64,000 nt of DNA from assembly GCA_019659055.1 (NCBI GenBank), contig JAIFWV010000002.1:26047-90046 (forward strand). The letters are read 5' to 3'. Source of the stretch: Candidatus Doudnabacteria bacterium. GTDB lineage: Bacteria; Patescibacteriota; Doudnabacteria; UBA920; O2-02-FULL-48-8. Under the pieces are notes generated by a model. That model saw nothing but the letters and a program-made list of their open reading frames with translations, was not told where the DNA came from and did not search any database. Positions 3,591 to 50,397 of the stretch are shown here, in pieces. A program made the translations under genes and the position numbers. The first letter of the stretch is position 1, and each line of letters begins with the position of its first letter.

Positions 3591-4790
3591 TTATTTGGTG
3601 ATTTTGAGTACTACACCGGCACCGACTGTGTGTCCGCCTTCGCGGATAGCAAAGCGCTGTTTTTCTTCCAATGCAACCGGGGAAATCAGCTTAACTTTGA
3701 TAGAAACTGTATCGCCTGGCATGACCATTTCCTGGCCGGCTGGCAATTCAACTTCGCCTGTAACGTCTGTGGTTCGGATGTAGAATTGAGGCTTGTAGCC
3801 CTTGAAGAACGGAGTGTGTCGTCCGCCTTCTTCCTTGTTGAGGACATAGACTTCAGCGTCAAATTCGGTATGAGGAGTAACTGAGCCTGGCTTGCAGAGT
3901 ACTTGTCCGCGCTCGACTTCGTCCTTCTTGGTTCCTCGCAAAAGCACACCCGCATTGTCGCCTGCTCGGCCTTCGTCGAGTTGCTTGTTGAACATTTCGA
4001 TACCAGTGACTACGGTCTTGGCGGTTGGGCGCAAACCCATGATTTCGACTTCATCGGAAACTTTGACAATACCGCGCTCGATACGGCCAGTAACAACTGT
4101 GCCGCGGCCTTCTATGGAGAAGATGTCTTCGATAGCCATAAGGAATGGCTTGTCGATGTCGCGCACTGGTTCTGGGATTTGAGCATCCAAAGTTTCGAGA
4201 AGTTTAACAATGGAATCAACACCGGCCTGGTCGCCCTGAATCGCTTTGAGAGCGCTTCCGCGGACGATGGCAGTAGTTTTGCCGTCGAAACCGTATTTGG
4301 TGAGCAGGTCGCGGACTTCTTCTTCGACGAGGTCGAGAAGTTCCTGGTCTTCCACCATATCTACCTTGTTGAGGAAGACGACGATTGCTGGCACGCCAAC
4401 TTGCTTAGCCAAGAGGATGTGTTCGCGGGTCTGAGGCATTGGGCCGTCGACTGCGTTCACAACCAAAATTGCACCGTCCATCTGGGCGGCACCGGTGATC
4501 ATGTTTTTGACATAATCAGCGTGGCCCGGACAGTCGACGTGTGCGTAGTGTCTGTTTGGGGTTTCGTATTCGACGTGTGAGGTCGAGATGGTCAAGATCT
4601 TAGTTGGATCTCGGCGACCTTGTGATTCTGACGCCTTGGCGACTTCATCGTAAGGGACGAACTTTTTGGTCCAGCCCTTATCGAAGGAGACTTTGGTCAA
4701 AGCGGCAGTGAGAGTGGTTTTGCCGTGGTCGACGTGGCCGATTGTACCCACGTTGACGTGCGGCTTGGAACGTTCAAATTTGTCTGCCAT
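3591..4790 (-). CDS. tuf: elongation factor Tu
   Basis: [22 protein letters not shown] GTPase motifs; start taken at [15 protein letters not shown] (4790) rather than track 4808. Confidence 0.95.
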
Positions 4791-5050
4791 TTGTATAGCC
4801 TTTCGCAATTTTTAAGTGGTATCCAGTCAGTCCCGAGCCTTAACCGAAAGCCCTATCGACCAGGCTTTTAGCCAAGTTCAGGATGACGCCAATCTTAAAA
4901 AACGCTTAAAATTAATTTTAATGCCATAAGATTATAAAGGATTTGTGAGGCTTTGTAAAGGGTCAGAAGCCTTGTGGATAAGTGGCCAAAAACCAGCCAT
5001 TTCAACGGCTCACACCCCGTGTGAGCCGTTGAACCAAACTGCACCTATCA

Positions 5051-5079
5051 TTGACTTAGCAAAGAAATTCTGCTAAAAT
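5051..5079 (+). promoter_or_regulatory. sigma70-type promoter (TTGACT-17-TAAAAT) for gmk-like transcript
   Basis: TTGACTtagcaaagaaattctgcTAAAAT; about 250 nt upstream of the gmk ATG. Confidence 0.55.
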
Positions 5080-5085
5080 GTCTTC

Positions 5086-5328
5086 GATTCCTGATCCGCT
5101 CTCACGGACCGAGGAAGGGGGCTTTCTAACTACCGGGTGAAGCTACGAGACAGGGGGTATCGTAGCCGGATCTGGTTTTGGCACCAATGGTTGGTGTAGT
5201 TGGAAGTCTATAACCCCCTTCATTCTTTTCATGAGAATAAGGGTGTGAATCAGCCGTCTACTTCGATTAGTGACGGTCTTTTTTATGCCAATTTTGGTCC
5301 TCCCGACACTCGGACTACAGGTGCTTAA
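5086..5328 (+). ncRNA. long structured 5' leader ending in terminator-like hairpin (candidate riboswitch/attenuator, class unidentified)
   Basis: nested complementary segments (GGGGGTAT../..ATAACCCCC, ACCAATGG/TTGGT) and CCGTC..GACGG hairpin followed by TCTTTTTTAT at 5254-5290, between promoter and ATG 5329. Confidence 0.3.
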
Positions 5329-5912
5329 ATGCAATTTTTTTGCTATAAATACCTTACGGCAAAAACAAAACATTTGGTCTTTGGATTCGTGGGAGACTCC
5401 GGGTCTGGCAAATCCACTCTCATGATCGAACTTCTCAATTTCTTCCCGCATCTTGAGATAATCAAATCCACTTCCACCAGAGCGCGGCGCGACGACACTG
5501 ACGATTTGTTCTACAAGCTGGTCGGTATGGATTATATGGACAATCCCGAAAACCAGAAGAATTTCCTCAATCACGAAATCTATGCGGGCAATCATTACGT
5601 CTACGAGCGCTCTATCCTCGACCAGGTTCTGCGCTCACATTGCGGCATGTTTGCCATCATCGAATCCGCTGTGCCAAAAATCCAGAAAGCAGGATACGAT
5701 GTACGACTCATCAAAGTCGTCCCAATTGTGACTGGGATTTGGATCGGACTCGAGAGCGCCAGAGCGAAGACCAGCTTCGCGCCACGCAAGGCGGATTGGT
5801 TTTTGATCTCGTTATCGAAAACTCATTTCGGCCCGGCGGATTGGAACAATCAGTCGAGACTGCCGCAAAATTCATTCAGGACCAAATCCACGGGCACCAC
5901 CCCGGGAATTGA
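5329..5912 (+). pseudogene. gmk: guanylate kinase (gmk-like) with apparent +1/-1 frameshift near nt 5725-5745
   Basis: frame 1 gives P-loop GDSGSGKST and STSTRARR (TTRxPR motif); alignment to Gmk continues in another frame (track ORF 5640..5912: LDRTRERQSEDQLRATQGG..FDLVIEN..); frame-1 tail after the shift is low-complexity. Confidence 0.6.
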
Positions 5913-5960
5913 CAGAACCCCCCAGAACAGGTATAAATAGGAATCATTAACGGAGGATTC

Positions 5961-6227
5961 ATGAGTATCTTGGATCGACTCTTTGATTTTTTCCATCGTA
6001 CCGAGGACACCCGGGCCACTCCTGTCTTGGAATACGTGGCTCCTCCCCGCGAAGTCACCAAGTACCATCTGCACGACCACGAGTTCGAGGGTCTGGTCGA
6101 TCACTACTTGGCAGACGAGTACTACATCGACGTGGAGCGGGCGAAGCTCCACCTCAAAGACTGCAAGGAATGCACCGACGTTTTCTGCGGTTTCTGGAAT
6201 CGCATGAGACGGCAGAAGGTCGCCTAA
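5961..6227 (+). CDS. hypothetical small His/Cys-containing protein (88 aa)
   Basis: SD GGAGGA 7 nt before ATG; His-rich HLHDHEFEGLVDH and C-terminal CKECTDVFC; stop overlaps next start (TAATG). Confidence 0.55.
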   Translation: MSILDRLFDFFHRTEDTRATPVLEYVAPPREVTKYHLHDHEFEGLVDHYLADEYYIDVERAKLHLKDCKECTDVFCGFWNRMRRQKVA

Positions 6228-6502
6228 TGTCTCGCTACAGAGGACTAGGACGAGCTCGAACCCGGGCCAACCGGGGCGCGCGCGAGAGCGCAGACATACG
6301 GTTACTAGAGGAAGAATACCTGAGACTCCATCCCGAGATCCGGGGGTTCGAGGACAGAATCTGCTTAATAGCCCCGAACTGCCCTGATTTTGATCGCAGA
6401 CTCCCGTTCAGAATTCCGTACTGCGATCCCCATGTGCGTGAGTGCGAAAAATGCCAGGAAAAAATGGCAGCATCCGGATTCCCATATCCAAAGGAGCGTT
6501 AA
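6227..6502 (+). CDS. hypothetical Cys-rich small protein (91 aa, zinc-ribbon-like)
   Basis: ATG overlaps upstream stop (TAATG); Cys pattern C..NC...C..HVREC..EKC; basic Arg-rich N-terminus. Confidence 0.5.
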   Translation: MSRYRGLGRARTRANRGARESADIRLLEEEYLRLHPEIRGFEDRICLIAPNCPDFDRRLPFRIPYCDPHVRECEKCQEKMAASGFPYPKER

Positions 6503-6741
6503 TGCCAGTCACAAAACTTGCTTCGGCGGTAAACGCGATCACCATCCCAGCCGATGACCTGGTTCAGACGGTCAGTGAGCACGAGAGACTGGGCGAGCGC
6601 ATAATCGCTACAGTCCCAGGAGGACTTCAACTCAAAAGGACCGGAAGCGGGCGCAATAGCGTGATCGAAGTCATCCCGACTTCTTTCACCCTCATTCTCG
6701 GGCAAGAGAGACACCGCGACTACCGAAACGGTGAATCCTAA
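6502..6741 (+). CDS. hypothetical protein (80 aa)
   Basis: perfect AAGGAG 6 nt upstream, TAATG coupling to previous ORF; followed by terminator. Confidence 0.5.
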   Translation: MPVTKLASAVNAITIPADDLVQTVSEHERLGERIIATVPGGLQLKRTGSGRNSVIEVIPTSFTLILGQERHRDYRNGES

Positions 6742-6751
6742 TCGCTATCGC

Positions 6752-6786
6752 GGCGTGGACGTACATACGTCCCGCCGCTTTTTTTA
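6752..6786 (+). terminator. rho-independent terminator
   Basis: GGCGTGGACGT-ACAT-ACGTCCCGCC hairpin then TTTTTTTAT. Confidence 0.65.
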
Positions 6787-6854
6787 TTAATTGCTTGCGC
6801 TCGCTAGCATTATTTTTATTTGTTAAAATATTTTCAAACCCTACGGAGGCCCTA

Positions 6855-7076
6855 ATGGATTTTCAGGAGAAATCCGTCAGCTTTCATCAGTTCACTGCAG
6901 ACGTGGACAAGCTGAGAATTTTGATGATGTGCTATCGGACTTGCGAACAACCCAAAAACACCAACCCTGACACTGACGAGGTCGTAAACGCTTACAATCA
7001 TATGTTTGGGCATGGCGGACGATGCCAAGAATGCTTCCCCTATGCCGTCAAGCTACTCAGTCTCCTGGAAAATTAA
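6855..7076 (+). CDS. hypothetical zinc-ribbon-like small protein (73 aa)
   Basis: SD GGAGG 5 nt before ATG; CYRTC ... CQEC Cys pairs. Confidence 0.5.
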   Translation: MDFQEKSVSFHQFTADVDKLRILMMCYRTCEQPKNTNPDTDEVVNAYNHMFGHGGRCQECFPYAVKLLSLLEN

Positions 7077-7077
7077 A

Positions 7078-7112
7078 AACGGCGCGCCTCCTTTTTTGAA
7101 GGCCGCCGTTTT
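7078..7112. terminator. bidirectional terminator (small ORF on plus strand; fusA on minus strand)
   Basis: AACGGCGCGCC-loop-GGCCGCCGTT hairpin flanked by A-run upstream and TTTCGTTTTCC downstream. Confidence 0.6.
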
Positions 7113-7239
7113 CGTTTTCCAATTATTTATTTAGCGAGGCATTTGTAAAAGCAACCCGCGGAGGACGACGGTCCGAGCGCGTAGGCCGAAATTTTAGCAA
7201 AAATTTACGGCCGGTGCTTTTACAAATATGCCGAGCGCC

Positions 7240-9372
7240 TTATTGTCCGACTTGTCCCACGCGGACTTTGCCAGATTCGCCGATAATTTTCTCGGCCACA
7301 TTTCTTGGCACTTCCTCGTATTTGAGAAACTCCATAGTGTAGGAAGCCTGTCCCTGGGACATGGATCGGATTTGGGTGGCGTAGCCAAACATTTCCGCCA
7401 GCGGGACTTCTGCGTCAATTATTTTGAGGTTGCCGCGATCGGTCATTTCAAGGATTTTGCCGCGCTTGGCGTTGAGGTCGCCGATGACATCGCCCATGGC
7501 TGATTCCGGGGTCGTGACCTCGACTTTCATAATCGGTTCGAGAATGATTGGGTTGGCTTTTTTCACGGCGGACTGGAAAGCCATGGATCCGGCAATTTTG
7601 AAAGCGATTTCAGAAGAGTCAACCTCGTGGTAACTGCCATCGTAGAGCGTGGTTTTGACGTTGAGCACTGGGAATCCGGCAATAACGCCGCGATCCTCTG
7701 CTTCCGCAATACCTTTTTCTATCGGTTTGATATATTCCTTGGGTACGGTGCCGCCAACGATTTCATTTATAAATTCATTGCCTTTCTCTGGATCATCCTG
7801 CGGTTCGATTCGTATCCAGACGTGACCATACTGACCCTTACCGCCGGTCTGGCGGATGTATTTGCCTTCGGCATCAGCTTTACCGCGAATAGTTTCTTTG
7901 TAAGCAACTTGGGGTTTACCAACATTGGCCTCGACTTTGAATTCGCGCTTCATGCGGTCAACCAAAATTTCCAAGTGCAGTTCGCCCATACCCGCAATCA
8001 AAGTTTGCTGGACTTCTTCGTCAGTGCTGACTCGGAAAGTCGGATCCTCTTCTGCGAGTTTTTGCAAAGCCAAACCCATCTTTTCTTGATCGGCTTTGGT
8101 CTTTGGTTCGATAGCAACCGAAATAACCGGTTCTGGGAATTTGATCTTCTCAAGCATTACAGGGAAATCGACATCACAAAGCGTATCGCCAGTGAAGGTA
8201 TCTTTCGGCCCGACCAGGGCCGCGATATCGCCGGAATGAACTTCCTTAACCTCTTCGCGGGAATCGGCATGCAATCGGACCAAGCGGCCAACACGTTCTT
8301 TGTTTCCGGAACGGGCGTTTAGAATATATGAACCGGCTTGAAGGACTCCTGTGTAAACTCGGAAGAACGCCAATTTGCCGACAAAGGGGTCAGTTGCGAT
8401 TTTGAATGCCAAGGCTACAAACTTGTCGCTATCGTTTGGAGTCAGTAAAATTTCTTCTTGAGTCTTGGTATTGATAGCCTTAATCGGGGGCTTATCTAAC
8501 GGTGAGGGCAGGTAGTTCACTACCGCATCCAAGAGCGAAGTCACGATAAGTCCGCGTCCATCTCCGCCGAGGACTGGGAAAAACTTTCCCGACAAGGTCG
8601 AGGTTCGGATAGCTTTTATCAACTCCTGGTCGCTGATTTCCTCGCCGGCCAAATATTTTTCCATGAGAGCATCATCTGATTCGACAACTTTTTCTATGAG
8701 CTTCAACCGGTACTCGCGCGCTTTCTCAAGCATGTCGGCTGGGACTTCGCCTTCGGTAAAGGTCTTGTCCTTGTGCTCCTTGTATGTATAGGATTTCATC
8801 TTCACCAAATCGACAATGCCGTTGATGTCTTTTTCAAACCCAATCGGTAGTTGGATCGGGAAGGCGTTGGGCGACAAGCGCTTGTGAATCGCATCCAAAG
8901 ATTTATAAAAATCGCCGCCAGTCTGGTTGATCTTGTTTATAAAGCACATGCGGGGTACTGCGTATTTGTCGGCTTGGCGCCAGACGGTCTCGGACTGAGG
9001 TTCTACACCCATCTTACCGTCGAAGACCACGACTGCGCCGTCGAGCACGCGTAAAGATCGCTCGACTTCGACTGTGAAGTCCACGTGTCCGGGGGTGTCG
9101 ATGATGTTGATGCGGTGAGTGTCGGGAGATTTACCGCCAGATTGCAGTGTCCGCGACCAAAAGCTGGTGGTGGCCGCCGCGGTAATCGTGATGCCGCGTT
9201 CGCGTTCCTGCTCCATCCAGTCCATGGCAGTGTTGCCTTCGTGGACTTCGCCAATCTTGTGGATCTTGCCGGTATAAAACAAAATCGACTCGGTAGTGGT
9301 GGTCTTACCGGCATCGATGTGGGCAATAATCCCGATGTTTCTGGTTTGTTCTAGGCTGTATTCTCTAGGCAT
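7240..9372 (-). CDS. fusA: elongation factor G
   Basis: 710 aa; [21 protein letters not shown] motifs and full EF-G domain order. Confidence 0.95.
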
Positions 9373-11277: not shown

Positions 11278-11913
11278 ATGTCGTACATTGCAAACGTGTT
11301 CGGTGACCTGGACGATCAGAACAAGTACACCGACGACCTGTTGGCACAACTGCTTGCGCAACTCTTCGAGAAGCCGGCGGCGTGTGTCGATCAGGACGAC
11401 CGCTGCTCTTCCAAGCCCTTGAGCGACTCCGACACGAGCATCACGCTCGATTGCGGCAAGATCGTCAAGCGCTGCAGCTACCACACGAAGGTGTTGTCGG
11501 TGCTCGAGACGGAAGTCCGCACCGTCTTCGCGGGTGTCGCTGTCAAAGCCATCCGCGAAGTCCAGAACGCGCGGGCGGCTGAGAAGGCCCGGATCGCGGC
11601 CGAGAAGAAGCTCTTCCGCGACGAGATCCGCAAGCACCTGGCGCGCAGCGTCGGTGTCACGGTGGAAATCGTAACCGAGGAGGACGTGACCGCGAAGATC
11701 GCGGCGATGACCGAGGACCAGAAGTACAAGCTCCTCGACATCGTGCTCAAGCGCGACCAGCCGGCGAAACCCGTCGTCAATGCGACGACGAAGCCCGGCC
11801 AGAAAAACCAGAAGCCCGCGAGCCCGCGGCCGACCCTGGTTCACACCAATCGACCCATGGGTGACGTCGCGCACCCCGGCGATCTCCGCCTCACTCAGGC
11901 CGCGAATCGCTAA
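11278..11913 (+). CDS. hypothetical protein (211 aa), G+C-rich
   Basis: SD AAGGAGG 7 nt before ATG (track ORF starts earlier at 11173); Ala/Lys-rich helical central region; flanked by promoter and terminators. Confidence 0.55.
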   Translation: MSYIANVFGDLDDQNKYTDDLLAQLLAQLFEKPAACVDQDDRCSSKPLSDSDTSITLDCGKIVKRCSYHTKVLSVLETEVRTVFAGVAVKAIREVQNARAAEKARIAAEKKLFRDEIRKHLARSVGVTVEIVTEEDVTAKIAAMTEDQKYKLLDIVLKRDQPAKPVVNATTKPGQKNQKPASPRPTLVHTNRPMGDVAHPGDLRLTQAANR

Positions 11914-14105: not shown

Positions 14106-17100
14106 TCAGAATAACGCCGGCTTGCCTAGACTTGCCACCACCGAGACATAACGGTCCTCGTTGAGGATCTCAGACAGGGAATGCGCGGGCATTGCTCCAT
14201 TGAACAGATACCCTTGCGCGCGATTGCACATATTTTCCCGCAAAAACGCCAGCTGATTTTTGGATTCCACTCCTTCGGCTGTTATTTCCATGTTGAGACT
14301 GCGCCCGAGCGTGATAATTGATTTCGCAATTGCCGAATTTTGCATATCCATGGGGATACCCTTCATGAAAGTTCTCTCGATTTTGAGCATATCCACCGGA
14401 AAATGTTTGATGTAGCGCAAAGACGAATACCCGGTCGAAAAATCATCGAGGCAGAATCTGACTCCCCGTTCGCGCAAGGCATTCATGATGCTTGTAATAT
14501 TGTCTTCATTTTCGGCCAGGATTGATTCTGTAAGTTCGAGTTCCAGAAAACGAGCGTCAAATTTGGATTCTTCGATAGCGCCGATGAGGACATTCTCAAA
14601 ATTCTTCTGCTTGAATTGCCGGGCCGAAAGATTGATAGCCATAATCATTTTGTAGCCGGCATCGTGCCACATCTTCCCCTGCTTCAAGGCTTCTTTGAGT
14701 ATCCATTCGCCAATGGGTTCTATGAGTCCGTTGGCTTCTGCCAATGGGATAAACCGGTCAGGCAAAATCAGCGTCATATCCGGCCTCTGCCAACGGATAA
14801 GCTCTTCTGTCCCAACTATTTTACCTGTGGCGACATCTACTTGCGGCTGGTAAAACAGCACGAACTCCTGGTTTTCCAGAGCGTGTCGAAGCTTGGAATC
14901 CAGAGTTAGCCGTTCGTAGGCCGCCGAATTCATTGTGGTCGTATAGAACTGATAGGTATTGCGGCCGTATTCCTTGGCGCGATAAAGTGCGGCCTCGGCA
15001 TTTCTGAGCAGACTCGAGGCCTCTCTGCCGTCGTATGGATAAAGGCTGATACCAATACTCGGGCTGATAAACAGCTCGTGCTGGTCAAGGTAAAACGCGG
15101 GCCGGAAATCCTCCAAAATTTTATTGGCAAGCTTAGCCGCTTCTTCTTCGGTCTGGATATCGGCCATAAGGATTGCAAATTCATCACCGCCAAGCCGAGC
15201 TAAGACATAATCTTCTTTGACACAGCTGCGTACGCGCAAAGCGACTTCCTGAATCAGGCGATCGCCCAAAGCATGACCCAGAGATTCGTTTATTTGCTTA
15301 AATCGATCGAGATCGAGGAGCATAATTCCCAAATTCTGACCGTTGGCTTCGGCATCCGAAATAGCTTGCGCGAACCGTTCATTGAGGTAAGTCCGATTGG
15401 GCAGATCCGTGAGAGTGTCGTGATGGTACTGATACTGCAGGTTTTCTTCCGCGAGCCGGCGTTCGGTGATATCGCGAAAGTTTACAACCATGGCCCGAAT
15501 ACTCGGGTGGTGCAAAAGATTTGTACCTACTCCCTCAATCCAGCGATAGTTGCCATTGGCATGGCGGCAGCGGTATTGTGCGGTAATCGTCTGGTCCGGC
15601 TTGCGCAAGCTCGTGGCCAGAAGCTCGGCCACCAGCGGGGCGTCGTCGGGGTGCACTATATTTCTAATATTTACTCCGTGCATTTCTTCCGATGTGTATC
15701 CAAGCATACGCTGGACCGGCATGGTCGCAAATGTCAGGACACCGTTGGCATCGAGGAGTGCCACGCCGTCTGAGGTGTTATCGATAATAGCGCGGTACCG
15801 CTCTTCGCTGACCTGAAGTTTCTGTTCCATGAATTTACGCTCACGGATCTCTATCTGAGCTTCCCGATAGAGTAAGGCGTTGTCGATGGCCATGCCGGCG
15901 CGTCGGCCGAGCTCTTCGAAGAATTTAAGATCCTTCTCCTCATAGCGCTTGTTGGACTCTGCCCAGATCAAGGACATGACCCCGAAGACTTTATCGCGTG
16001 CGACCAAAGGCACCATAAGTGCGGACTTAATACCGAGCTTGGACGTGAGTTCATAATGCTCCGGATCGCGCGAACTGGCGCGGAGCATGTCGTCGGTAAT
16101 CTCCTTATAGATTTCAGCTTTTCCGGTGGTGATGATTTTCCAGGTCCCACGCTCCGGATCTTTGTGATTCGGATACTTTCTTGCCAATTCCACAGCAAAT
16201 TTTATTTTTTCCGGGTCCACGTGTTCTACTGCGACTTGCTTTGTGTTTTCGCCGTCAGGAGTGAGAATTTCGATTCCGCACCAATCGGCAAATTTGGGGA
16301 CGGCTAATTTCGCCACTCGCGCCAGTGTTGTCTCAAAATCCAAAGACGATGATAATAATTTCGTAGCTTCGGATAAAAACACGACCCCTTCGTCGGCTTG
16401 TTTGGATTTCGTAATGTCGCGAGCCACGGCCGAGGCACCCACGACTTTGCCGGAATTATTTTTTATTGGCGAGACCGCCACGGATATGTCCAAAATCCGT
16501 CCGTCTTTGGTTTTCCTTTTGGTCTCATAGTGATTAACACCCCTGCCGAGTCGGATCTGCGCCAAAAGCATTCTGGTGTCATCCGGAAAGCCTTCCGGAA
16601 CCAAGACTGAAACATTCTTGCCGAGAATTTCTTGTTCGGTATAGCCATATATCCTTACCGCTCCTTTATTCCAGCTCGTGATGTTGCCTTCTAGATCTTT
16701 GCCCATGATCGCGTCCTCAGACGATTCAACTATAGCTACAAGTTTGAGATTGGCCTCGAGGGCGGTTTTTTGAGGAGTGATGTCGCGCAGATACACAGCA
16801 AGGCCGTCTTTGGCGGGGTACACTGAGGATTCTATCCACTTCGGCATATTTCCCGGTTCAGAAAATTTTTCTTCGTAACGCAGGGATTTATTTTCCAACA
16901 AGGCTTCCTGCAGTTTGGAATAGGTCGCGGTCTGCATTGCGTTTGGAAATTCCTGAAAAATATTTTTTCCCAGAAGCTCGCTCCGGTTCCGCTGTAACAA
17001 CTGTTCGGCTTGGCGGTTGACGTATGTAAAGTTCCAATCTTTATCCAACGCAAAAAAGCCGTCAGTAATACTTTCGAGAATATGCTGGTTCCGGCGATTG

Positions 17101-17600
17101 ATTTTTTCGTATTCAGACTGTATATTTCTCTGCGCTGTGATATCTCGAAAAATACTCACAGCAAATCGGACCTTGCCCTCGCTGTCCCTGATGGGGCGAG
17201 CTTTGATTTCTGACCAAAACTCTGATCCCGTTTGCCGATTTCTGGAAAGTACAATCTTACTCGGTACCTCGAGCCCGTCCAGAGCAGATCTGGCTGGCAG
17301 GTCATTGAAGCTCACCGGGTTCCCGTTCTCATCAAAAATCTCAAACTTGTTTATGGCGTCGGAAACTAAATGATTTATAATCTCGGATTTATTATTGAAA
17401 TCCATAAGGGCGACCGCTGCGGCATTGGCAAAAACCACCCGGCGGCTTTCATCCTGAACGATTACGCCGTCGGCAATAGCCTGAAAAATTTCTTCTAAGT
17501 TTTGTTTCGCGTCGAGTTGCCCGAAAAGCCGCCCTAAAGTTACATCCGAATTTTGCTGATTAGTGTCTGAAATCATACGATAAACCTTCATTGTGGCCAC
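14106..17600 (-). CDS. multi-domain signalling protein: PAS/GAF sensor domains + GGDEF diguanylate cyclase + EAL phosphodiesterase
   Basis: 1164 aa; several PAS-like repeats, GAF-like segment, RLGGDEFAIL (GGDEF), EELIRWQ and downstream EAL-domain conserved blocks. Confidence 0.85.
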   Translation of the reverse strand: MATMKVYRMISDTNQQNSDVTLGRLFGQLDAKQNLEEIFQAIADGVIVQDESRRVVFANAAAVALMDFNNKSEIINHLVSDAINKFEIFDENGNPVSFNDLPARSALDGLEVPSKIVLSRNRQTGSEFWSEIKARPIRDSEGKVRFAVSIFRDITAQRNIQSEYEKINRRNQHILESITDGFFALDKDWNFTYVNRQAEQLLQRNRSELLGKNIFQEFPNAMQTATYSKLQEALLENKSLRYEEKFSEPGNMPKWIESSVYPAKDGLAVYLRDITPQKTALEANLKLVAIVESSEDAIMGKDLEGNITSWNKGAVRIYGYTEQEILGKNVSVLVPEGFPDDTRMLLAQIRLGRGVNHYETKRKTKDGRILDISVAVSPIKNNSGKVVGASAVARDITKSKQADEGVVFLSEATKLLSSSLDFETTLARVAKLAVPKFADWCGIEILTPDGENTKQVAVEHVDPEKIKFAVELARKYPNHKDPERGTWKIITTGKAEIYKEITDDMLRASSRDPEHYELTSKLGIKSALMVPLVARDKVFGVMSLIWAESNKRYEEKDLKFFEELGRRAGMAIDNALLYREAQIEIRERKFMEQKLQVSEERYRAIIDNTSDGVALLDANGVLTFATMPVQRMLGYTSEEMHGVNIRNIVHPDDAPLVAELLATSLRKPDQTITAQYRCRHANGNYRWIEGVGTNLLHHPSIRAMVVNFRDITERRLAEENLQYQYHHDTLTDLPNRTYLNERFAQAISDAEANGQNLGIMLLDLDRFKQINESLGHALGDRLIQEVALRVRSCVKEDYVLARLGGDEFAILMADIQTEEEAAKLANKILEDFRPAFYLDQHELFISPSIGISLYPYDGREASSLLRNAEAALYRAKEYGRNTYQFYTTTMNSAAYERLTLDSKLRHALENQEFVLFYQPQVDVATGKIVGTEELIRWQRPDMTLILPDRFIPLAEANGLIEPIGEWILKEALKQGKMWHDAGYKMIMAINLSARQFKQKNFENVLIGAIEESKFDARFLELELTESILAENEDNITSIMNALRERGVRFCLDDFSTGYSSLRYIKHFPVDMLKIERTFMKGIPMDMQNSAIAKSIITLGRSLNMEITAEGVESKNQLAFLRENMCNRAQGYLFNGAMPAHSLSEILNEDRYVSVVASLGKPALF

Positions 17601-18205: not shown

Positions 18206-18892
18206 TTATAGAGTAAACTTGAATGTCGCCAGGATATCGGCGGAGGCGCCGGTCTTGTGAGTGATTTTGTAAGTCCCCCCGTTTTTGGAAATAAGTAAGA
18301 TCGATGTCCCTGACTTCAAAATAATTTCGCGCGCATCGTATCCGTTGAATTTAACATCTTGGGCGGAGGTGATATTGCCGTCTTCGGCGGATCCGATTTG
18401 TCCCCGGACCGAAGTTATGGCTTTGCTTACAAATTCAATAGTAACCGTTTCACCGGAATTATCTGCACCCGTAGATGCATCGTGAATAACTACGATCTTG
18501 CTCTTGTCGAAATCCCCAGTGGCTTCGTAACTCGGCGGGTACATAACGCTGAAGCTGGTACTGGTATAAGTTTTCCAAGTGTTGGCGTCCTGGCTCGGGC
18601 TTTGCTCTTGGGCTTTATGAATCACTGCCGGTGACCAACGAGCGTCATCGAAAACCATAAAGTCGCGCAGGCCATACACTGGCCAGTAGTAAACCGCAGC
18701 CCCGGCAATGGCCACTGCCAAAAGCAGGAGCAGAAATCCCGAAACATGAAACCGGCTGGGACGTTCGGTCTTGAGATTCATTTGTGGCATTATTCTTTCC
18801 GGTTTTCTAATTTCGGGTTCTGGCGCAAGCATTGGTTCTTCAACCGGTTCTAACGCTTGAGGTTGGATGTTGTTTATTTTCTTTCTTGGCAT
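18206..18892 (-). CDS. hypothetical membrane-anchored protein (228 aa)
   Basis: Pro/Glu-rich N-terminus, single TM helix, extracytoplasmic domain. Confidence 0.5.
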
Positions 18893-19007
18893 GGTTTTGT
18901 TTTAAATGTGTAGGTTAATCATAGCGCTATTAATTAATTTTGGCAATTCCGGCAGAAAAAAACCCGGTACAGCGCTCAAGAGCACTGCCGGGTTTGAGAT
19001 TTCGAGA

Positions 19008-19421
19008 CTACGAGGAAAGGAGACGATATCTGAGGAACACCACATGTTGAGATCCTCGCTGCATTTCAGATCGGCTAAACCTTTCGCCGTCCTGCAGTCT
19101 GCGCCTCCTTGGAAGTTTGGAGAACTGAGCCACGATCATGCCTCCGATTTCCTCATCGCTCGGAGGATTGTCGGGATCATAGAGGGGTATCATGAGCGAG
19201 TATTCGCTCCTGAGAATCCTCTGGACTTCGTGCTGGTCATTACGAATAACACTGAGAAGCCGATCGCCAGACGATAGAATTTGCACCTCCTGGACTGGGA
19301 TTTCGGATGGAGTACCCAAGTTGAACTTTTTTTGGAGCTCACCTGCATCCGAAGTGTTGCATCCGACGAGCATCAGCTGTTTAGGGCCGAGTCCGGTCCT
19401 CTGTCTTTTCGTTGTCAGCAC
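19008..19421 (-). CDS. hypothetical protein (track ORF; start is GTG at 19421, first ATG at 19373)
   Basis: ORF only; overlaps the next ORF in another frame, possible frameshifted single gene. Confidence 0.3.
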   Translation of the reverse strand: MLTTKRQRTGLGPKQLMLVGCNTSDAGELQKKFNLGTPSEIPVQEVQILSSGDRLLSVIRNDQHEVQRILRSEYSLMIPLYDPDNPPSDEEIGGMIVAQFSKLPRRRRLQDGERFSRSEMQRGSQHVVFLRYRLLSS

Positions 19422-19575
19422 TTTTCCCCTCCTCGGGCAATATCGTCCGGTAAGACTTCGCCTCTCCTTGCAAAAAAAGTTGGATGTTGTCTCCTGGATA
19501 GAGTGCCATCAACTCTTGGATCTTCTCGGACGGGATGGATCCCGCGAAAGGATGACAATATTTTACAAGTCCCAT
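19381..19575 (-). CDS. hypothetical small protein (64 aa)
   Basis: SD GAGGAGG directly upstream of ATG at 19575. Confidence 0.4.
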   Translation of the reverse strand: MGLVKYCHPFAGSIPSEKIQELMALYPGDNIQLFLQGEAKSYRTILPEEGKSADNEKTEDRTRP

Positions 19576-19669
19576 ATTCCTCCTCTTACGACTCCTAAGC
19601 TTATACTATATAAGAGCGTTTGTAAACCCTTGATGAATTAACAGTAAGCAACTATAATAATTCGGTCGG

Positions 19670-19743
19670 CGGGGTGTAGTATACCGGTAGTACGCGCCCA
19701 TGGGGTGGGTGTAGACAGGGTTCAATTCCCTGCACCCCGACCA
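19670..19743 (+). tRNA. tRNA-Pro (anticodon GGG)
   Basis: manual fold: acceptor CGGGGTG/CACCCCG (C1:G72), D-stem GTAT/GTAC, anticodon stem CGCCC/GGGTG with loop AUGGGGU (U33, GGG, G37), T-arm CAGGG-TTCAATT-CCCTG, discriminator A, encoded CCA. Confidence 0.8.
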
Positions 19744-20002
19744 AATAACGCTCGCATTGATTGTAAATCTACCGGCCGTAAATTTCTGGTGAAATTTCGG
19801 CCTACTCGCTCGGACCAGTCGTCCTGCGCGGGTTAGATTTACAACAAAGCTCGCTAATTTAATATTATTGTAATAAATAATTTAGAAAAAATCATCACTA
19901 TTTTGTGGTGATTTTTTCTTTGCAAAAAAAAGAGGCTCAAGACCTGCACGTATACCGTGCTAGATCGTGAGCCCCGCTTCTGGCCGAGGTGACCAGAGAT
20001 TG

Positions 20003-20185
20003 CTAACTTCCAAGAGGTGGCGCATCCATCCAGTAGTCTCCGACGTATTTCTTGCGCGGCGGCTTTTCCTGGATCGATCCGGGAGAGTTGATTTCCTCGG
20101 TCCGATACGCGAGCTGGTTTCCATCGCGAACCTTGCTACACTGCCGAATCGGAGGATCGTCGCTCTTCTTGTCAGTCTCGTCCAT
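20003..20185 (-). CDS. hypothetical small protein (60 aa), G+C-rich islet
   Basis: SD AAAGGAG 6 nt before ATG at 20185. Confidence 0.4.
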   Translation of the reverse strand: MDETDKKSDDPPIRQCSKVRDGNQLAYRTEEINSPGSIQEKPPRKKYVGDYWMDAPPLGS

Positions 20186-20386
20186 ACACACTCCTTTGGT
20201 GGAAACGTTGTCAGTCGTCGTCGAATGATTCTCCGCGACGGGGGTCGTCCTCACGCAACAGATTGGGATGAATGCGGCATGGCTTGCTGAAAGCGGAGAT
20301 ATCGGTCCTCGCAGACCGGCGGGTCGGTTTCGCCTCAGCCGATCGATGATCCGGAGGTGGTGAGTCTTTTTCTCTCATACTGCTCC

Positions 20387-20644
20387 TTAATCGTCATGAG
20401 GATGACGAAATCCTTCCGGGGGGCTTCGGCGCTGTCTCTTCGGTTTGGGTTCGCCGTCGCGCCGCCGTTTGAGATGTTCGATCCGCAAGCTATAGACCCG
20501 GACGACATCGTCCTGGCCGAGCTTGCCGGCTCGCAAGATTTTCCTCGCCAGCCGTTCGATCTGCGGCTGAATACCGCGGACGGTGTTCAATGACGGCCTG
20601 CGGCGGCCATCTGATTCGAGCGTATGCGCTGACCAGCAGCTCAT
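20387..20644 (-). CDS. hypothetical small basic protein (85 aa), G+C-rich islet
   Basis: SD AAAGGAGA 8 nt before ATG; Arg/Lys-rich, possible nucleic-acid binding. Confidence 0.45.
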   Translation of the reverse strand: MSCWSAHTLESDGRRRPSLNTVRGIQPQIERLARKILRAGKLGQDDVVRVYSLRIEHLKRRRDGEPKPKRQRRSPPEGFRHPHDD

Positions 20645-20646
20645 CC

Positions 20647-20946
20647 TTAGATCTCCTTTTGCGGGATTATCCGAACCAGATCAAACTTGCAGTCCTCGTC
20701 GTCTACCAGCAGCGGTTCGTACCGGAAGAATTCTCCTTGCAGGTACAGTTGCGTATGACCTCCTGGGTCTGAGGCCAGGATGAGGATTTCACCCGGCCGG
20801 CAAAAACGGTTCAGTTCAGTGTGGCAGGTGTAGTTGAGCCCTCTGTTTGATTTGCGTATGCCGTCTGCGGCAATCGCAAGCTGTCGCGAGCGCGTTTCGT
20901 TCTCGTTTGCCGTCTGGCGCGCTAGTCGATCTTGTCGGACAACCAT
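20647..20946 (-). CDS. hypothetical protein (99 aa), G+C-rich islet
   Basis: SD AAGGAGG 8 nt before ATG at 20946 (track ORF begins at TTG 20988). Confidence 0.45.
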   Translation of the reverse strand: MVVRQDRLARQTANENETRSRQLAIAADGIRKSNRGLNYTCHTELNRFCRPGEILILASDPGGHTQLYLQGEFFRYEPLLVDDEDCKFDLVRIIPQKEI

Positions 20947-21294
20947 TGCAGAATCCTCCTTGGACTCGTTTCGAATTTGTAGGTTCAAATTTTGTAAGAC
21001 AAAAATTTATCTCACAGAGTTTGGACCACAAGCGATAAAAAATCCGACCAGGTGGTCGGTTCATCATAGTTTTCGCTTTAAGCTTGGCAATTAGCGTTTT
21101 CTATATGAACCGACATGCACGGGGACGTAATCAAACTTAACCATGCCCAAAATAATTTGGGTGAGTCGAGTCAATGCGTTGTGCAGAAGGTTTTTCATAT
21201 AGTTATCAACAAACCTAGTATAAGTTTAACAATAATAATGCTCTGCGTCAAATGAAAAGACCAAGAACTTGAGTGTTCCTGGTCTTTTTAGCTC

Positions 21295-21492
21295 TCAGAG
21301 CCAAAGCGATTCCGATTTGGGTAGTTGCGCCAACCCGGTCTTGTTTGCAGAAACCGTACCGGCGCTGGGACACCTGGTTTCGTTCATCTGCTCGGCGCTC
21401 TCGTGAACGTCGCCGCAAGCCAGACATTTACGCTTGCCGCTGTCTCCAACCTTGATACTTCCCTTGAGCGTACCACAACTTTGAGCAACCAT
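21295..21492 (-). CDS. hypothetical zinc-ribbon-like small protein (65 aa)
   Basis: SD AAGGAGG 4 nt before ATG; CGTLKG...CLACGDVHE...C; terminator-like hairpin at 21256-21290. Confidence 0.45.
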   Translation of the reverse strand: MVAQSCGTLKGSIKVGDSGKRKCLACGDVHESAEQMNETRCPSAGTVSANKTGLAQLPKSESLWL

Positions 21493-21662
21493 GACTCCTC
21501 CTTAATTCTGACACTTCGTTTCGACTTCCAAGACATGGCAGAAATTTTGTCTCTGACAAGTCATGCAAAGCCAGTAGCGGCCGATCTTTACGCAATTTTT
21601 ATGTGGGCCGATTTCGATGATCCGAATCTCATCTCGTGTCTTCAATCTCCTCCTCCTCTTAA

Positions 21663-21854
21663 TTATTCTTTGTAAGCTTGAACCGCAAGATTGGCTGACC
21701 TTTGAGCATTCTTATCGGACAACCCGACTGATCGCTCGTGGTTGTAGAGCAGCAACCACAAGTCTTTCTTTTTCCCGGACAAGTAATTAGGCGGCCAAGT
21801 TCGGCTCTCACTGACCGAGTTGTTCATTACTCGGAGCGTTGCTAAATCCCACAT
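21663..21854 (-). CDS. hypothetical small protein (63 aa)
   Basis: SD AAGGAGG 6 nt before ATG. Confidence 0.4.
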   Translation of the reverse strand: MWDLATLRVMNNSVSESRTWPPNYLSGKKKDLWLLLYNHERSVGLSDKNAQRSANLAVQAYKE

Positions 21855-21989
21855 CCATGTCCTCCTTACCAGCCGTTTCCGAGATAAATGTTCACCGGCA
21901 GACGATCCGGGTTAAATCGAATTAGATTGTAATCGCCGTACTGACCCTTGCCGAGTTTGTGTATGAGTTTCATCAGATCTCTGGCTAAA

Positions 21990-22109
21990 TTACGGGCGCC
22001 AAAGATCCTCCTGGGCCACGAAATCCAAAAACTCTTCGCAATCGGCGTATTGGGGCGGGCCACACCTTGAACTTGCCATAATCCTAAAAAACGTTAGACG
22101 GTAATGCAT
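21990..22109 (-). CDS. hypothetical micro-protein (39 aa)
   Basis: perfect SD AAGGAGG + 4 nt + ATG at 22109; not in ORF track because <60 aa; overlaps track ORF 21866..22063 (GTG start) in another frame. Confidence 0.3.
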   Translation of the reverse strand: MHYRLTFFRIMASSRCGPPQYADCEEFLDFVAQEDLWRP

Positions 22110-22282
22110 AGTTCCTCCTTGTAAACAAAAACACCGGCCGCAATGGTCGGTGTGAAGTTTCAATTTCAAATGAAAACTTACCCGGCCAGTGCGTCGGTAT
22201 AAAAGTAAAACCAGAATGAATTAGCCGAATGAATTTTCATAGTATAGTAATTATACACCCAAGTGCTGTCGCTTGTCAAAAA

Positions 22283-23167
22283 TTATTCCAATTTATGGAC
22301 CTTGTCCATGAATGCATCCAATTCTTCTTTGCTGAAAAATTCAATCATGATTTTGCCGGACTCACCCGTTTTCTGGACTTTGACCTTGGTTCCCAATTTC
22401 CCGCGGAGTTCGTTCTCTATAGCCATTGTTTCCGGATCACTGGAAGTCTTCGGGGCTTTGATCATTTTGGGCCTCTGCATGATTTCGCGGGCTTTTTCTT
22501 CTACTTGCCGGACTGTAAGCATATCGGAAACCACCAACTCAAACAGTGCCAGCTGTTTTTCCATTCCGACCACTCCCAGGATTGCCCGGCCGTGCCCTTC
22601 GGAGATAATTCCTTCGGCTATCGCCCTCTGGATTTTGAGCGGCAGGTTGAGCAAACGCAAAGTGTTGGCGACTGTCGTACGGTTTTTCCCCATTTTCTGC
22701 GCCACTTGCTCTTGCGTCATACTATATGCCTCCATGAGCTGTTTGTATGCCGTCGCCTCTTCGATCGGGTCGAGATTGTGTCTCTGAATGTTCTCAATCA
22801 GCGCTAGCTCCAGCTGGAGCTGTTCGGTCATGGCATCGCGCACGATTGCGGGGACTTTCGCAAGGCCTGCAATCTTAGACGCCCGCAAGCGGCGCTCCCC
22901 GACTATCAATTGATAATTACCATCTCCCGTCGGGATGACCACGAGGGGCTGGAGGATACCGTGTTGCTTGATCGAAGTCGCCAGTTCATCAAGATTTTCC
23001 TCGCGGAAAATCTTACGCGGTTGCCACGGATTAGGTTTGATGAGGTTTATGTCGATTTCGGTAAAATGCTCGGGCAAAAGCGCCACCGGCGTCCCCGGCG
23101 GGTCAGTAACCGGCAAGCTTGCCGAAAGTTCATTTGAAAGTATTGATTGTGGGGTGTTTTCTTCCAT
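22283..23167 (-). CDS. parB: ParB/Spo0J-family partition protein (orphan, no adjacent parA)
   Basis: 294 aa; ParB N-terminal box (GILQPLVV..GDGNYQLIVGERRLRASKIAG) and HTH (TQEQVAQKMGKNRTTVANTLRLL). Confidence 0.85.
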   Translation of the reverse strand: MEENTPQSILSNELSASLPVTDPPGTPVALLPEHFTEIDINLIKPNPWQPRKIFREENLDELATSIKQHGILQPLVVIPTGDGNYQLIVGERRLRASKIAGLAKVPAIVRDAMTEQLQLELALIENIQRHNLDPIEEATAYKQLMEAYSMTQEQVAQKMGKNRTTVANTLRLLNLPLKIQRAIAEGIISEGHGRAILGVVGMEKQLALFELVVSDMLTVRQVEEKAREIMQRPKMIKAPKTSSDPETMAIENELRGKLGTKVKVQKTGESGKIMIEFFSKEELDAFMDKVHKLE

Positions 23168-24683: not shown

Positions 24684-24747
24684 TGGTGCCGCTGGTCGGA
24701 ATCGAACCGACATGGCCGTAAGGCCACACGATTTTGAGTCGTGCGTG
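24684..24747 (-). pseudogene. partial duplicate of tRNA-Leu(CAA): 3' 64 nt only (anticodon arm to CCA), no matching 5' half
   Basis: 64-nt segment identical to the corresponding part of the full tRNA-Leu 88 nt away; upstream sequence cannot pair as acceptor stem. Confidence 0.6.
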
Positions 24748-24771: not shown

Positions 24772-24858
24772 TGGTGCCGCTGGTCGGAATCGAACCGACA
24801 TGGCCGTAAGGCCACACGATTTTGAGTCGTGCGTGTCTGCCAGTTCCACCACAGCGGC
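24772..24858 (-). tRNA. tRNA-Leu (anticodon CAA), type II with long variable arm
   Basis: acceptor GCCGCTG/CAGCGGC, anticodon stem CACGA/TCGTG with loop CUCAAAA, variable arm TGGCCTTACGGCCAT, T-arm GTCGG-TTCGATT-CCGAC, A73, encoded CCA. Confidence 0.8.
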
Positions 24859-31020: not shown

Positions 31021-31395
31021 ATGCCTGTTCTGCCCATTCCCGAGAAACTCGACAACTTTCGCGACCTTCTCAGCACTGCCATTTTTCACAGCTATCAGGC
31101 TGCCGCTTCCGGGAAACTTGCGGCTCCCGCATTTTCGCGAATTGTACCGATTGTCACATCAGATCCAGTTGCGTACGAGATCCATTCTTACGAAGATGCT
31201 CCCTATGCGGAGTTCATCTGGAGTCTCTGGTTTCTCATAGCCTCAGACCATGAAGTCTTCGGACAGCTTCAGGCGATGCGTTCGGATCTACAGCAACAGA
31301 ATTTCCGTGTCTGGGTCGGCATAGGCGTTTCGCCAAATATTTTCTCTGAAGCCGATTTCGGTCTTCTCCAAGGATCCGGGATAATGCAGATCTAA
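31021..31395 (+). CDS. hypothetical protein (124 aa)
   Basis: strong SD AAGGAGGG 5 nt before ATG; lone plus-strand gene between leuS and tatD. Confidence 0.5.
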   Translation: MPVLPIPEKLDNFRDLLSTAIFHSYQAAASGKLAAPAFSRIVPIVTSDPVAYEIHSYEDAPYAEFIWSLWFLIASDHEVFGQLQAMRSDLQQQNFRVWVGIGVSPNIFSEADFGLLQGSGIMQI

Positions 31396-40056: not shown

Positions 40057-40410
40057 CTATAGATCTGCGATGAGCATTTTGTACCCATCGATTACGCTAT
40101 CGCATAACTCAAGCATCGCGATGATTCCCGAACTAGTCAGCTTGCCCATGACCTGCGTCTGCTTGGGTGAGACGATCCAGCAAGCTCTGCCCGCAGCCTT
40201 CTGGATATCCCTCTGAGAGAAAGCAATCTGACCAAGACCCTTGGTATCCATGTGGGTCACGCCCGTGAGGTCGATGAGAATCAGCCGTTTGTCTTCAGCG
40301 GGAAGACTTTGGACAACCTGTTCGAGCTCATCGCCCGTCGAGCTATCCAAACGACCGCTGACCGTTAGACTATAGACGCCGTTTAGCCGTTCTGAACCTA
40401 TTTTCAGCAT
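40057..40410 (-). CDS. STAS-domain protein (anti-sigma-factor antagonist-like)
   Basis: 117 aa; SpoIIAA-like pattern with conserved Ser/Thr region (LTGVTHMDTKGLG). Confidence 0.6.
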   Translation of the reverse strand: MLKIGSERLNGVYSLTVSGRLDSSTGDELEQVVQSLPAEDKRLILIDLTGVTHMDTKGLGQIAFSQRDIQKAAGRACWIVSPKQTQVMGKLTSSGIIAMLELCDSVIDGYKMLIADL

Positions 40411-49914: not shown

Positions 49915-50397
49915 CTAGAAGTAGACGGAACCGATGAGGATCGCGATGGTCACCATGAGGCGGCCAGCTGTGACCAGGACTCCCTGAGGAGCCTGTGTCT
50001 TGATGGGATCGGAGATGTCTTCGTCTTCGGGAGGAATCTCGACCACCTGCCGCGAGATGAAAGCCATGAACCATGAGCGATCCTCGTTGTTGAGGCGATC
50101 CCACTCGATCCAGCACAGACGCACGCTTTCGCTCTTGATCATGAGCATCTCGGCTATGTGCGGCTGAATCTTTCTAGCCACAAGGATATCTCGGATTTCC
50201 TGAGCCCGGATGGGCCGCTGGGCTGCTGCGTACGCTGCGACCAACATGAGACATCCATCGTCCTCATCTGAATGCGCGTTGTTATTGATCCACTGCCCCA
50301 CCAGGATCCGGTCTCCGCGCGACACGATGCCCTCGTACACGGAGCGACGCAATTCCGGCGGAATCTCTTGCGTGAATGTGCGCAACAAGTTCTGCAT
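49915..50397 (-). CDS. hypothetical protein with C-terminal TM helix (160 aa), G+C-rich
   Basis: SD CAGGAGG 4 nt before ATG at 50397 (track start 50439 unsupported by SD). Confidence 0.45.
   Translation of the reverse strand: MQNLLRTFTQEIPPELRRSVYEGIVSRGDRILVGQWINNNAHSDEDDGCLMLVAAYAAAQRPIRAQEIRDILVARKIQPHIAEMLMIKSESVRLCWIEWDRLNNEDRSWFMAFISRQVVEIPPEDEDISDPIKTQAPQGVLVTAGRLMVTIAILIGSVYF

Follow-up and report, generated by a model that had tools for sequence, protein, structure and literature searches.

The attenuators pheL-pheA and trpL-trpEDCBA of Escherichia coli and aroR-aroF (PMC11802643) have in common a short open reading frame (ORF) with aromatic codons that lies directly upstream of an intrinsic terminator and is followed by the operon. 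Their RNA is built of four segments, of which R1 resembles R3 and R2 resembles R4, with the stop codon of the short ORF beside R2; the AroR leader peptide of Corynebacterium glutamicum contains Phe-Tyr-Phe (PMC11802643). Mycobacteria use leaderless short ORFs as sensors (10.1101/834739), and in their poly-Cys 'ribulon' such an ORF is the first cistron of the operon, its tandem codons for the sensed amino acid pausing the ribosome and remodelling the downstream RNA (10.1101/834739). Here we describe a locus of small genes between parB and mscL in a 64,000-nt stretch of the genome of a Candidatus Doudnabacteria bacterium (contig JAIFWV010000002.1, positions 26,047 to 90,046; hereafter the window). 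Doudnabacteria have tiny cells and are known from environmental DNA alone. The locus is headed by a leader ORF with aromatic codons and an intrinsic terminator, and it is, in our judgement, probably a vertically inherited, clade-specific and fast-evolving small-protein locus, not a recently integrated element.

The features listed above for the classical attenuators recur in the leader of this locus. It differs from them in that its ORF is leaderless, with codons for Phe, Trp and Tyr together, in that the host is a Patescibacterium, in that small Cys-rich proteins are encoded downstream instead of biosynthetic enzymes or tRNA synthetases, and in that the putative antiterminator is a weak one, mismatched (C·A) at its centre. 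With the mycobacterial 'ribulon' it shares a leaderless ORF of sensory type as first cistron and the tandem codons that would pause the ribosome; the sensed codons differ, however, and an intrinsic terminator with a T-run stands between the ORF and the Shine-Dalgarno (SD) sequence of the next gene, which points to transcriptional control.

A small-protein locus between parB and mscL

The locus comprises five transcription units, namely the leader with K-J-I-H (operon 1), the mini-gene G, F-E-D-C (operon 2), tRNA-Pro and B-A (operon 3); coordinates are collected in Table 1. The original prediction had seen here a G+C-rich block of small minus-strand genes with strong SD sequences that ran from tRNA-Pro(GGG) to an orphan parB and looked foreign to the genome. 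A scan for such genes (strong SD hexamer, start codon 3-10 nt further on, ORF of at least 30 aa) found ten in succession on the minus strand, K, J, I, H, F, E, D, C, B and A, within 3.1 kb (19008-22109), where 1.22 would be expected from the 24 SD/start/ORF combinations in the remaining 60.9 kb of the window (Poisson P (≥10) = 7e-7). Eight of these (K, J, I, H, F, E, D and C; 39-99 aa, with AAGGAG(G) or GAGGAGG 3-9 nt ahead of the start) agree with the small genes predicted, as do the presence of Cys-rich (H and I) and basic (E) proteins and both of the terminators that had been named, which were found as an inverted repeat at 21255-21288 and a stem at 21044-21059 with a T-run. The SD-led B and A lie beyond tRNA-Pro, so the block occupies both sides of the tRNA, which is not its border.

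Comparison was made with ten related Doudnabacteria loci (L009, L016, L013, L011, L017, L001, L018, L015, L019 and the partial L014), whose ParB is 57-89% identical to that of the window. The backbone leuS-sua5-MFS-glyA-(PAP2)-tRNA-Leu-…-parB is kept in all ten, with synteny seen in L001, L009, L011, L013, L017, L018 and L019 and in part in L015 and L016, and behind the variable stretch mscL is found in seven loci, those that are long enough and possess the gene (L019 does not). Searches with tblastn and blastp across the loci, together with lists of their SD-led ORFs, gave the recurrent order parB-leader-(H)-G-(F)-(D, C)-tRNA-Pro-B-A-(X)-mscL, in which D and C are acidic-tailed or charged small proteins. 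Members of the H, G, F, C/D, B and A families occur at this site in L009, L011 and L013-L017: H stands behind the leader in L014, L015, L011 and others, F is found in L014, L017, P0129 and P0133, C and D in L009, and G, which is 71% identical to P0131, in L015 too and, less closely matched, in L013 and L014. Homologues of the downstream neighbour X that are 45-48% identical hold the same position in L009 and L014. The original prediction had itself held that a block conserved at the same position in distant relatives would be core and not acquired; since the same families stand at the same position in relatives whose ParB identity is as low as 57-70%, its reading of the block as a recently acquired island is not supported.

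Homologues were found for some of the small proteins. An exhaustive HMMER search returned homologues of A (31-44% identity), F (about 35%), H (about 50%) and G (71%), on contigs that proved to be parB loci belonging to this clade; no homologue of K, J, I or E came up, either there or in word-indexed searches, and these four are so far found in the window only. Scanning metagenome contigs with ParB yielded just distant loci, at 40-48% identity, and no contig was returned for the exact ParB of the window. The concatenate of eleven small proteins had no match in a word-indexed search of 5.8 billion proteins or in tblastn searches of 50,697 phage and 72,556 plasmid records. Pfam and PHROGs searches of nine small ORFs gave sub-threshold noise; K, J, I and H belong to no Pfam or PHROGs family, nor H to any NCBIfam family. 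The suggestion that the block is a cassette of small regulators or toxin-antitoxin-like genes may hold in its first half, and for the second no significant PADLOC or NCBIfam match to toxin-antitoxin or defence families was obtained among A, B, F, H and G or E, nor any match in a scan of A, B, E, F, H and X228. As had been predicted, no integrase is present among the ORFs from 17.5 to 25 kb, Pfam and PHROGs giving nothing on the small ORFs, and a blastn-short search with tRNA-Pro across the window found no 3'-tRNA direct repeat (longest repeat at most 11 nt).

The parB gene at the upstream edge has the three-domain architecture of the chromosomal ParB/Spo0J proteins (ParB_N, HTH_ParB and ParB_C are all matched by Pfam), scores 194 bits against a cutoff of 58 for TIGR00180, and sits in conserved housekeeping synteny; its product is 100% identical to an NCBI protein from a Candidatus Doudnabacteria metagenome-assembled genome. 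It differs from the described chromosomal systems in having no adjacent parA and no canonical parS within 64 kb (TGTTTCACGTGAAACA with up to 3 mismatches has no match there, though a divergent parS could escape such a search). That parB lacks a parA partner had been noted correctly: the deviant Walker-A motif of ParA, KGG[VTSIAC]GK[ST], is absent from all frames of the window. In the relatives, the gene upstream of parB encodes an ABC ATPase (L009-L013, L016) or is some other non-ParA gene (L017-L019). Because parA is not beside parB in any related locus, the 'orphan' state is a trait of the whole clade and of a chromosomal-type ParB, and does not mark an island. L013 (10901-10962) and L019 (9915-9976) have in common, inserted ahead of the leader promoter and past the parB stop, an element of about 60 nt, 81% identical, that opens with the hairpin CCACCTTTTG…CAAAAGGTGG; the window has no copy.

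The composition of the block proved less unusual than had been thought. Windowed G+C showed that the rise described for 19.7-22.3 kb is confined to the F-E-D-C operon (20003-20946), with a G+C of 0.567 against 0.469 for the window (98.6th percentile, +1.9 standard deviations), while the other units lie at 0.39-0.51. Codon usage did not clearly set the block apart either, the G+C at third codon positions (GC3) of the small genes being modestly higher (0.51-0.67, against about 0.53 in the backbone and 0.60 in parB) with no clear break; part of the excess in E and D falls on codon positions 1 and 2 and so reflects amino-acid content. The statement that housekeeping genes lack an SD holds: tuf, fusA, rpsG, glyA, leuS and metG show none of 4 nt or more, nor do about 45 of the 57 backbone ORFs of at least 100 aa in the window have one, in agreement with the detection of the anti-SD motif in just 48% of Parcubacteria (PMC9297842). 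As a block-specific sign of foreignness, however, the SD fails, for AGGAGG also precedes about ten other genes of the window, 7 of 10 without a Pfam family and the rest of STAS, M50 and ArsR type (examples are 11278-11913 and 31021-31395 on the plus strand and 40057-40410, 44473-45183, 49915-50397 and 61198-62763 on the minus strand). These genes, mostly Pfam-less or accessory, have in several cases a high GC3 (0.67-0.80), and the genome seems to use two classes of translation-initiation signal. The small-ORF regions of the relatives are likewise SD-led, with a G+C 2-9 points above that of their own locus. Strong SDs are thus a class feature of lineage-specific genes throughout an SD-poor genome and, being common to such genes, no sign of recent import. 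A strong SD with raised G+C is here no proof of recent horizontal transfer, which removes one false island call and is a caution for composition-based island finders used on genomes of the candidate phyla radiation.

Vertical inheritance has to be weighed against three other accounts of the locus. A recent integrative or satellite-like island at tRNA-Pro is hardly credible. The locus resembles tRNA-linked islands in its tRNA neighbour, in a gene content that varies among relatives and in locally unusual composition and translation signals, namely the SD contrast with housekeeping genes and the G+C of 0.567 at 20.0-20.95 kb; it differs from them in having no integrase and no tRNA 3' repeat, in genes that flank the tRNA on both sides, in a G+C that is normal outside one operon and in families conserved across the clade, which hold this site even in relatives with a ParB identity of just 57-70%. 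That many of the small ORFs arose by chance in intergenic or RNA-coding DNA is very unlikely as well. No homologue is detectable for K, J, I, E, B and most of D, and other-frame ORFs overlap within the G+C-rich stretch, but ten SD/start/ORF combinations against 1.2 expected, on a single strand and with stop-start coupling, argue for genes, as do homologues of A, F, G and H that are 31-86% identical and were called as genes in independent metagenomes, and the same SD-led architecture in relatives.

A stronger competitor, though still an unlikely one, is an ancient mobile-element remnant, in which a set of small early or anti-defence-type genes of phage or plasmid origin, among them one for an AcrIII-1-like ring nuclease, settled near tRNA-Pro before the clade diverged and became fixed while still turning over. 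It would account for the DUF1874 fold of A (see below), a family common in archaeal viruses, plasmids, phages and prophages (10.1101/778746), for small, densely packed and strongly expressed-looking genes without known families, several of them for Cys-rich or acidic-tailed proteins, for GIY-YIG or 23S-IVP-family genes beside the tRNA in relatives, and for repeated tRNA inversion and the local rise in G+C. Against it, there is no integrase, att repeat, structural or replication gene, the phage and plasmid records hold nothing similar, the families turned up solely here on the chromosome and within a single clade, the A family does not keep the catalytic His of AcrIII-1, and other lineage-specific genes of the window share the SD and GC3 signature. 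Two points weigh against the vertically inherited locus itself: gene content varies widely between relatives, and K, J, I and E have no homologue anywhere, so that their status as coding genes, which depends on SD, start codon and operon context only, is putative.

The leader ORF and its terminator

A leader ORF is present in 11 of 11 loci, with 18-23 codons and F-W-F-Y-F(-Y) in 10 of them; in the window the centre of the peptide reads F-W-F-Y-F-Y. All 11 have the promoter and a start codon 6-11 nt past the -10 box, so that the mRNA would be leaderless or nearly so. After 7-9 variable codons comes the motif (F/Y/V)-W-(F/Y)-(Y/I/F/S)-(F/L/Y), which in L019 is reduced to Y-W-F. Every indel ahead of the motif is a multiple of three, and TTC/TTT and TAC/TAT alternate synonymously, which together argue that the leader ORF is translated. 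Past the motif it is the nucleotides that are conserved, even in L014, L016 and L018, where the frame or stop differs, and this argues for an RNA structure.

That structure can be followed in all 11 loci as R1 (ACCGAC), R2 (GGCCGG or GGTCGG) and the hairpin CCGACC…GGTCGG, formed by R3 and R4, with its T-run. The leader stop codon abuts R2 in most loci, and the SD of the first small gene usually lies about 0-15 nt from the T-run (25-33 nt in L011 and L001). The terminator hairpin has a predicted energy of -9 to -15.6 kcal/mol in the 11 loci; in alignment A1, of nine loci, 91% of its cells are paired and it shows more covariation than 497 of 500 shuffles; the 144-nt leader transcript of the window (22105-22248) folds with z = -2.95. 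The bases 5' of R2 covary with the terminator loop (GTGG/CCAC, ACGG/CCGT, GATGG/CCATC, GTGTGG/CCGCAC). A T-box or riboswitch was considered for the leader and rejected, as there is no Rfam match and the conserved in-frame ORF explains the conservation better; weak Rfam matches (RsaJ, anti-hemB, mascRNA) were also rejected, their scores being far under the gathering level, and the leader has no Rfam family.

Whether the leader is a ribosome-mediated transcription attenuator is, in our estimate, about evenly balanced. In such a mechanism, stalling at the Phe, Trp and Tyr codons would place the ribosome over R1, and R2, left free, would pair with the 5' arm of the terminator (R3) and let RNA polymerase read through; a ribosome that reached the stop codon would cover R2 beside it, and the R3:R4 terminator would form. 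Consistent with this, R2:R3 pairing is found in 75% of cells of a MAFFT alignment (19-53% when the segments are slid) with three pairs changed on both sides, and in minimum-energy folds of transcripts truncated before R4 the 5' arm of the terminator pairs upstream in 9 of 11 loci, in 8 of which its partner is R2 where the leader ORF ends. Several results weigh against it. R2:R3 pairing does not exceed column shuffles, its duplex energies are no better than those with shuffled upstream sequence (mean z -0.5), and a central C·A mismatch interrupts it in most loci; in the truncated transcripts of the window and L009, the stop region is the predicted partner of the 5' end. No link to aromatic amino acids exists for the genes that the leader precedes, and the transcription start site is a predicted one, placed by the promoter match.

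The alternative is that the leader ORF is an independent micro-protein gene, or its transcript a small RNA, with a terminator of its own and K-H expressed through leaky termination. We regard this as somewhat doubtful. The motif N-x-FWFYF is conserved with synonymous variation, the ORF and terminator stay constant as a unit while the genes downstream change among relatives, the covariation of the antiterminator is not significant, and G is a comparable stand-alone mini-gene, all of which would suit a micro-protein. On the other hand, an SD-led gene follows the T-run in 11 of 11 loci, mostly so closely that a promoter of its own would hardly fit, the ORF keeps its nucleotides and not its amino acids towards the C-terminus (L014, L016, L018), and R1 is similar to R3 and R2 to R4, which is the pattern of classical attenuators. 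If attenuation is the true explanation, Patescibacteria would have a leader-peptide attenuator in charge of non-metabolic small proteins, something of which a limited literature search found no report, and this would offer a handle on nutrient sensing by uncultured episymbionts.

Operon 3 and protein A

B and A are coupled. The homologues of A begin at the Met encoded 5 nt past the B stop, and the ATG at that point is the probable start of A. The structure model of A matches the DUF1874 fold, Foldseek returning THSA-485A DUF1874 and STIV B116. This family, which includes the AcrIII-1 and Crn2 proteins (SIRV1 gp29, STIV B116, AFV3-109, THSA-485A), is widespread in archaeal viruses, plasmids, phages and prophages, and His47 of SIRV1 gp29 is its catalytic His, described as absolutely conserved (10.1101/778746). 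A departs from it in several respects: significant sequence or profile similarity is absent, a loop insertion of 4-6 residues is present, and no virus or type III CRISPR context was seen, A being always paired with the small upstream gene B. In a weak hhalign alignment that is nonetheless collinear, His48 of the window protein falls on the catalytic His and IVAQF..LP…DGE aligns with LIVAQL..RLPEG; by the same alignment the equivalent His is present in 2 of 8 members of the A family (the window protein and P0125), the others having Y, A, Q, A, K and Q.

Several points weigh against placing A in DUF1874. The model was built from 5 sequences with a predicted local distance difference test score (pLDDT) of 71, the link is by fold alone, and hhalign of the A family with DUF1874 gave a probability of 0.1-0.17, which is not significant. 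The A family also had no Pfam match at E values up to 10, a search of PDB sequences with its profile was empty, and that profile returned members of the family only. With no sequence support and the His in 2 of 8 members, we call A, as modelled, a DUF1874-like fold and not a ring nuclease; it may bind a nucleotide-like ligand. New biology may be sought in the small-protein families, above all in A and the B that always accompanies it, since genes of this sort are for the most part uncharacterised in the phylum.

As to the biological roles of the small proteins, one scenario may be sketched, a distinctly unlikely one, in which the aromatic leader would be the starvation sensor of a host-dependent lineage auxotrophic for amino acids and would switch on a fast-changing set of tiny, in part Cys-rich proteins, a neighbouring operon would supply a catalytically diverged, nucleotide-binding protein of DUF1874-like fold, the whole would be a host-interaction or anti-defence module domesticated beside parB, and tRNA-Pro, repeatedly inverted and followed by structured RNA, would belong to the same recombination-prone regulatory hub.

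tRNA-Pro, the 105-nt element and other features

Table 1. Features of the parB-mscL locus and related elements (window coordinates; SD, Shine-Dalgarno)
Feature	Coordinates	Strand	Remarks
tRNA-Leu(CAA)	24772-24858	-	ARAGORN
parB	22283-23167	-	294 aa; chromosomal ParB/Spo0J type; upstream edge of locus
Leader promoter	22250-22279	-	sigma-70, TTGACA-18-TATAAT, 12/12 consensus matches; 4 nt past parB stop
Leader ORF	22178-22240	-	leaderless, 20 codons, MKIHSANSFWFYFYTDALAG; ATG 9 nt after -10 box; aromatic codons 22199-22216
Attenuator-like RNA	22123-22201	-	segments R1-R4; terminator ends 2 nt before K SD
R1	~22193-22198	-	ACCGAC
R2	22182-22187	-	GGCCGG
R3	22145-22154	-	CACACCGACC; terminator 5' arm
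R4	22123-22139	-	GGCCGGTGT and T-run
Operon 1	21295-22109	-	K, J, I, H; all SD-led
K	21990-22109	-	39 aa
J	21663-21854	-	63 aa
I	21502-21645	-	47 aa; TTG start; 5 Cys
H	21295-21492	-	65 aa; Cys-rich (4 Cys)
Operon 1 intrinsic terminator	21250-21288	-	bidirectional-looking; 14-nt arms 93% complementary; T-run
G promoter	21223-21251	-	TTGACG-17-TAAACT
G (mini-gene ORF)	21091-21198	-	35 aa; no SD
G intrinsic terminator	21037-21061	-	
Palindrome upstream of F	20994-21015	-	GTGAGATAAATTTTTGTCTTAC
Operon 2	20003-20946	-	F, E, D, C; G+C-rich, SD-led, tightly coupled
F	20647-20946	-	99 aa
E	20387-20644	-	85 aa; basic (net +10)
D	20211-20378	-	55 aa; acidic tail
C	20003-20185	-	60 aa
Shared terminator hairpin	19886-19917		bidirectional, common to operon 2 and tRNA-Pro unit; arms 93% complementary; kept in L011
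105-nt element	19750-19854	+	Y-shaped, directly 3' of tRNA-Pro; -45.3 kcal/mol, z = -5.55
tRNA-Pro(GGG)	19670-19743	+	ARAGORN
tRNA-Pro promoter	19630-19658	+	TTGATG-17-TATAAT
Operon 3	19008-19575	-	B, A
B	19381-19575	-	64 aa; SD-led
A	19008-19373/19421	-	likely ATG 19373 (121 aa), 5 nt after B stop; alternative GTG 19421 with SD
Operon 3 intrinsic terminator	18956-18995	-	after A; inverted repeat and T-run
X	18206-18892	-	228 aa; one predicted membrane helix; no SD; conserved downstream neighbour
105-nt element, second copy	7124-7225	-	just 3' of fusA; 83% identical

The tRNA-Pro(GGG), which the original prediction had found by manual folding, is borne out by ARAGORN and by Rfam (RF00005, 49.8 bits with permissive filters; the default gathering run missed the gene), and C1:G72, A73 and the CCA are legible in the sequence. 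It is 94-99% identical among the relatives that carry it. Its orientation is opposite to parB in the window, L011 and L015 and the same as parB in L001, L009, L013, L014 and L018; on the ParB tree the two states are interleaved, which calls for no fewer than three flips. The B gene of L001 has been turned round along with tRNA-Pro, and the gene beside the tRNA is of the 23S-IVP family in L009 and GIY-YIG in L015. No inverted repeats bracketing tRNA-Pro were found, the sole find being the 11-bp stem of the 105-nt element.

That element sits between tRNA-Pro and the shared terminator, a place where L011 has none. Comparison of its two copies in the window shows six base pairs altered in both partners and no pair lost. 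It matches no Rfam family and no copy was found in the related loci examined. It resembles REP- or MITE-like repeats in its long closing stem and in having a second copy 3' of fusA, both copies lying just downstream of a same-strand gene, and differs from them in that just two copies are known and in that the six compensatory changes keep the Y fold; given these changes, a functional RNA fits the element better than the ends of a decaying inverted repeat. The element and the repeatedly flipped tRNA-Pro are concrete leads.

Within operon 1, a possible 35-codon ORF, MKLIHKLGKGQYGDYNLIRFNPDRLPVNIYLGNGW, lies between K and J (21866-21973, minus strand); it has no clear SD, its stop overlaps the J SD, and it is part of a longer GTG-started ORF (21866-22063) that overlaps K in a different frame. 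G is 86% identical at the amino-acid level to its L009 homologue, with 4 synonymous and 5 non-synonymous codon changes. The structure model of F (pLDDT 85) gave no fold match, and searching PDB sequences with the F-family profile was likewise empty. Across 20 loci, the arrangement GTGAGA-N8-11-TCTCAC was found exclusively upstream of an F-family gene, in L014 and L017, and the palindrome upstream of F in the window is a copy with one mismatch, which by its position may be an operator.

Elsewhere in the window, the 3' 64 nt of tRNA-Leu(CAA) (positions 24-87) are exactly repeated 24 nt downstream (24684-24747, minus strand), the repeat running 7 nt (TTTGTA[T/C]) into the flank; its appearance would suit an att-type scar, a tandem duplication or an error of assembly. 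The tRNA-Leu of L001 and L002 lies on the other strand with respect to the genes around it. The genes tuf and fusA are usually adjacent, and here tuf (3591-4808) and fusA (7240-9372) are separated by about 2.4 kb (4810-7240; G+C 0.53) with a P-loop ORF (5329-5940) and several small plus-strand ORFs, two of them SD-led (5961-6227 and 6502-6741), which may represent another cluster of small genes or else a genuine insertion into the str operon. By composition, the better candidate for foreign DNA than the small-gene block is the A+T-rich stretch 56000-60200 (G+C 0.30-0.35 against 0.47 for the window), whose ORFs at 56281-58743, 58901-59362 and 59355-60167 have a GC3 of 0.26-0.32. Downstream of mscL, the PAS/GAF/GGDEF/EAL protein encoded at 14106-17600 (minus strand) has 1164 aa, against 1157, 848, 716 and 606 aa in relatives, and appears to have gained or lost sensor domains.

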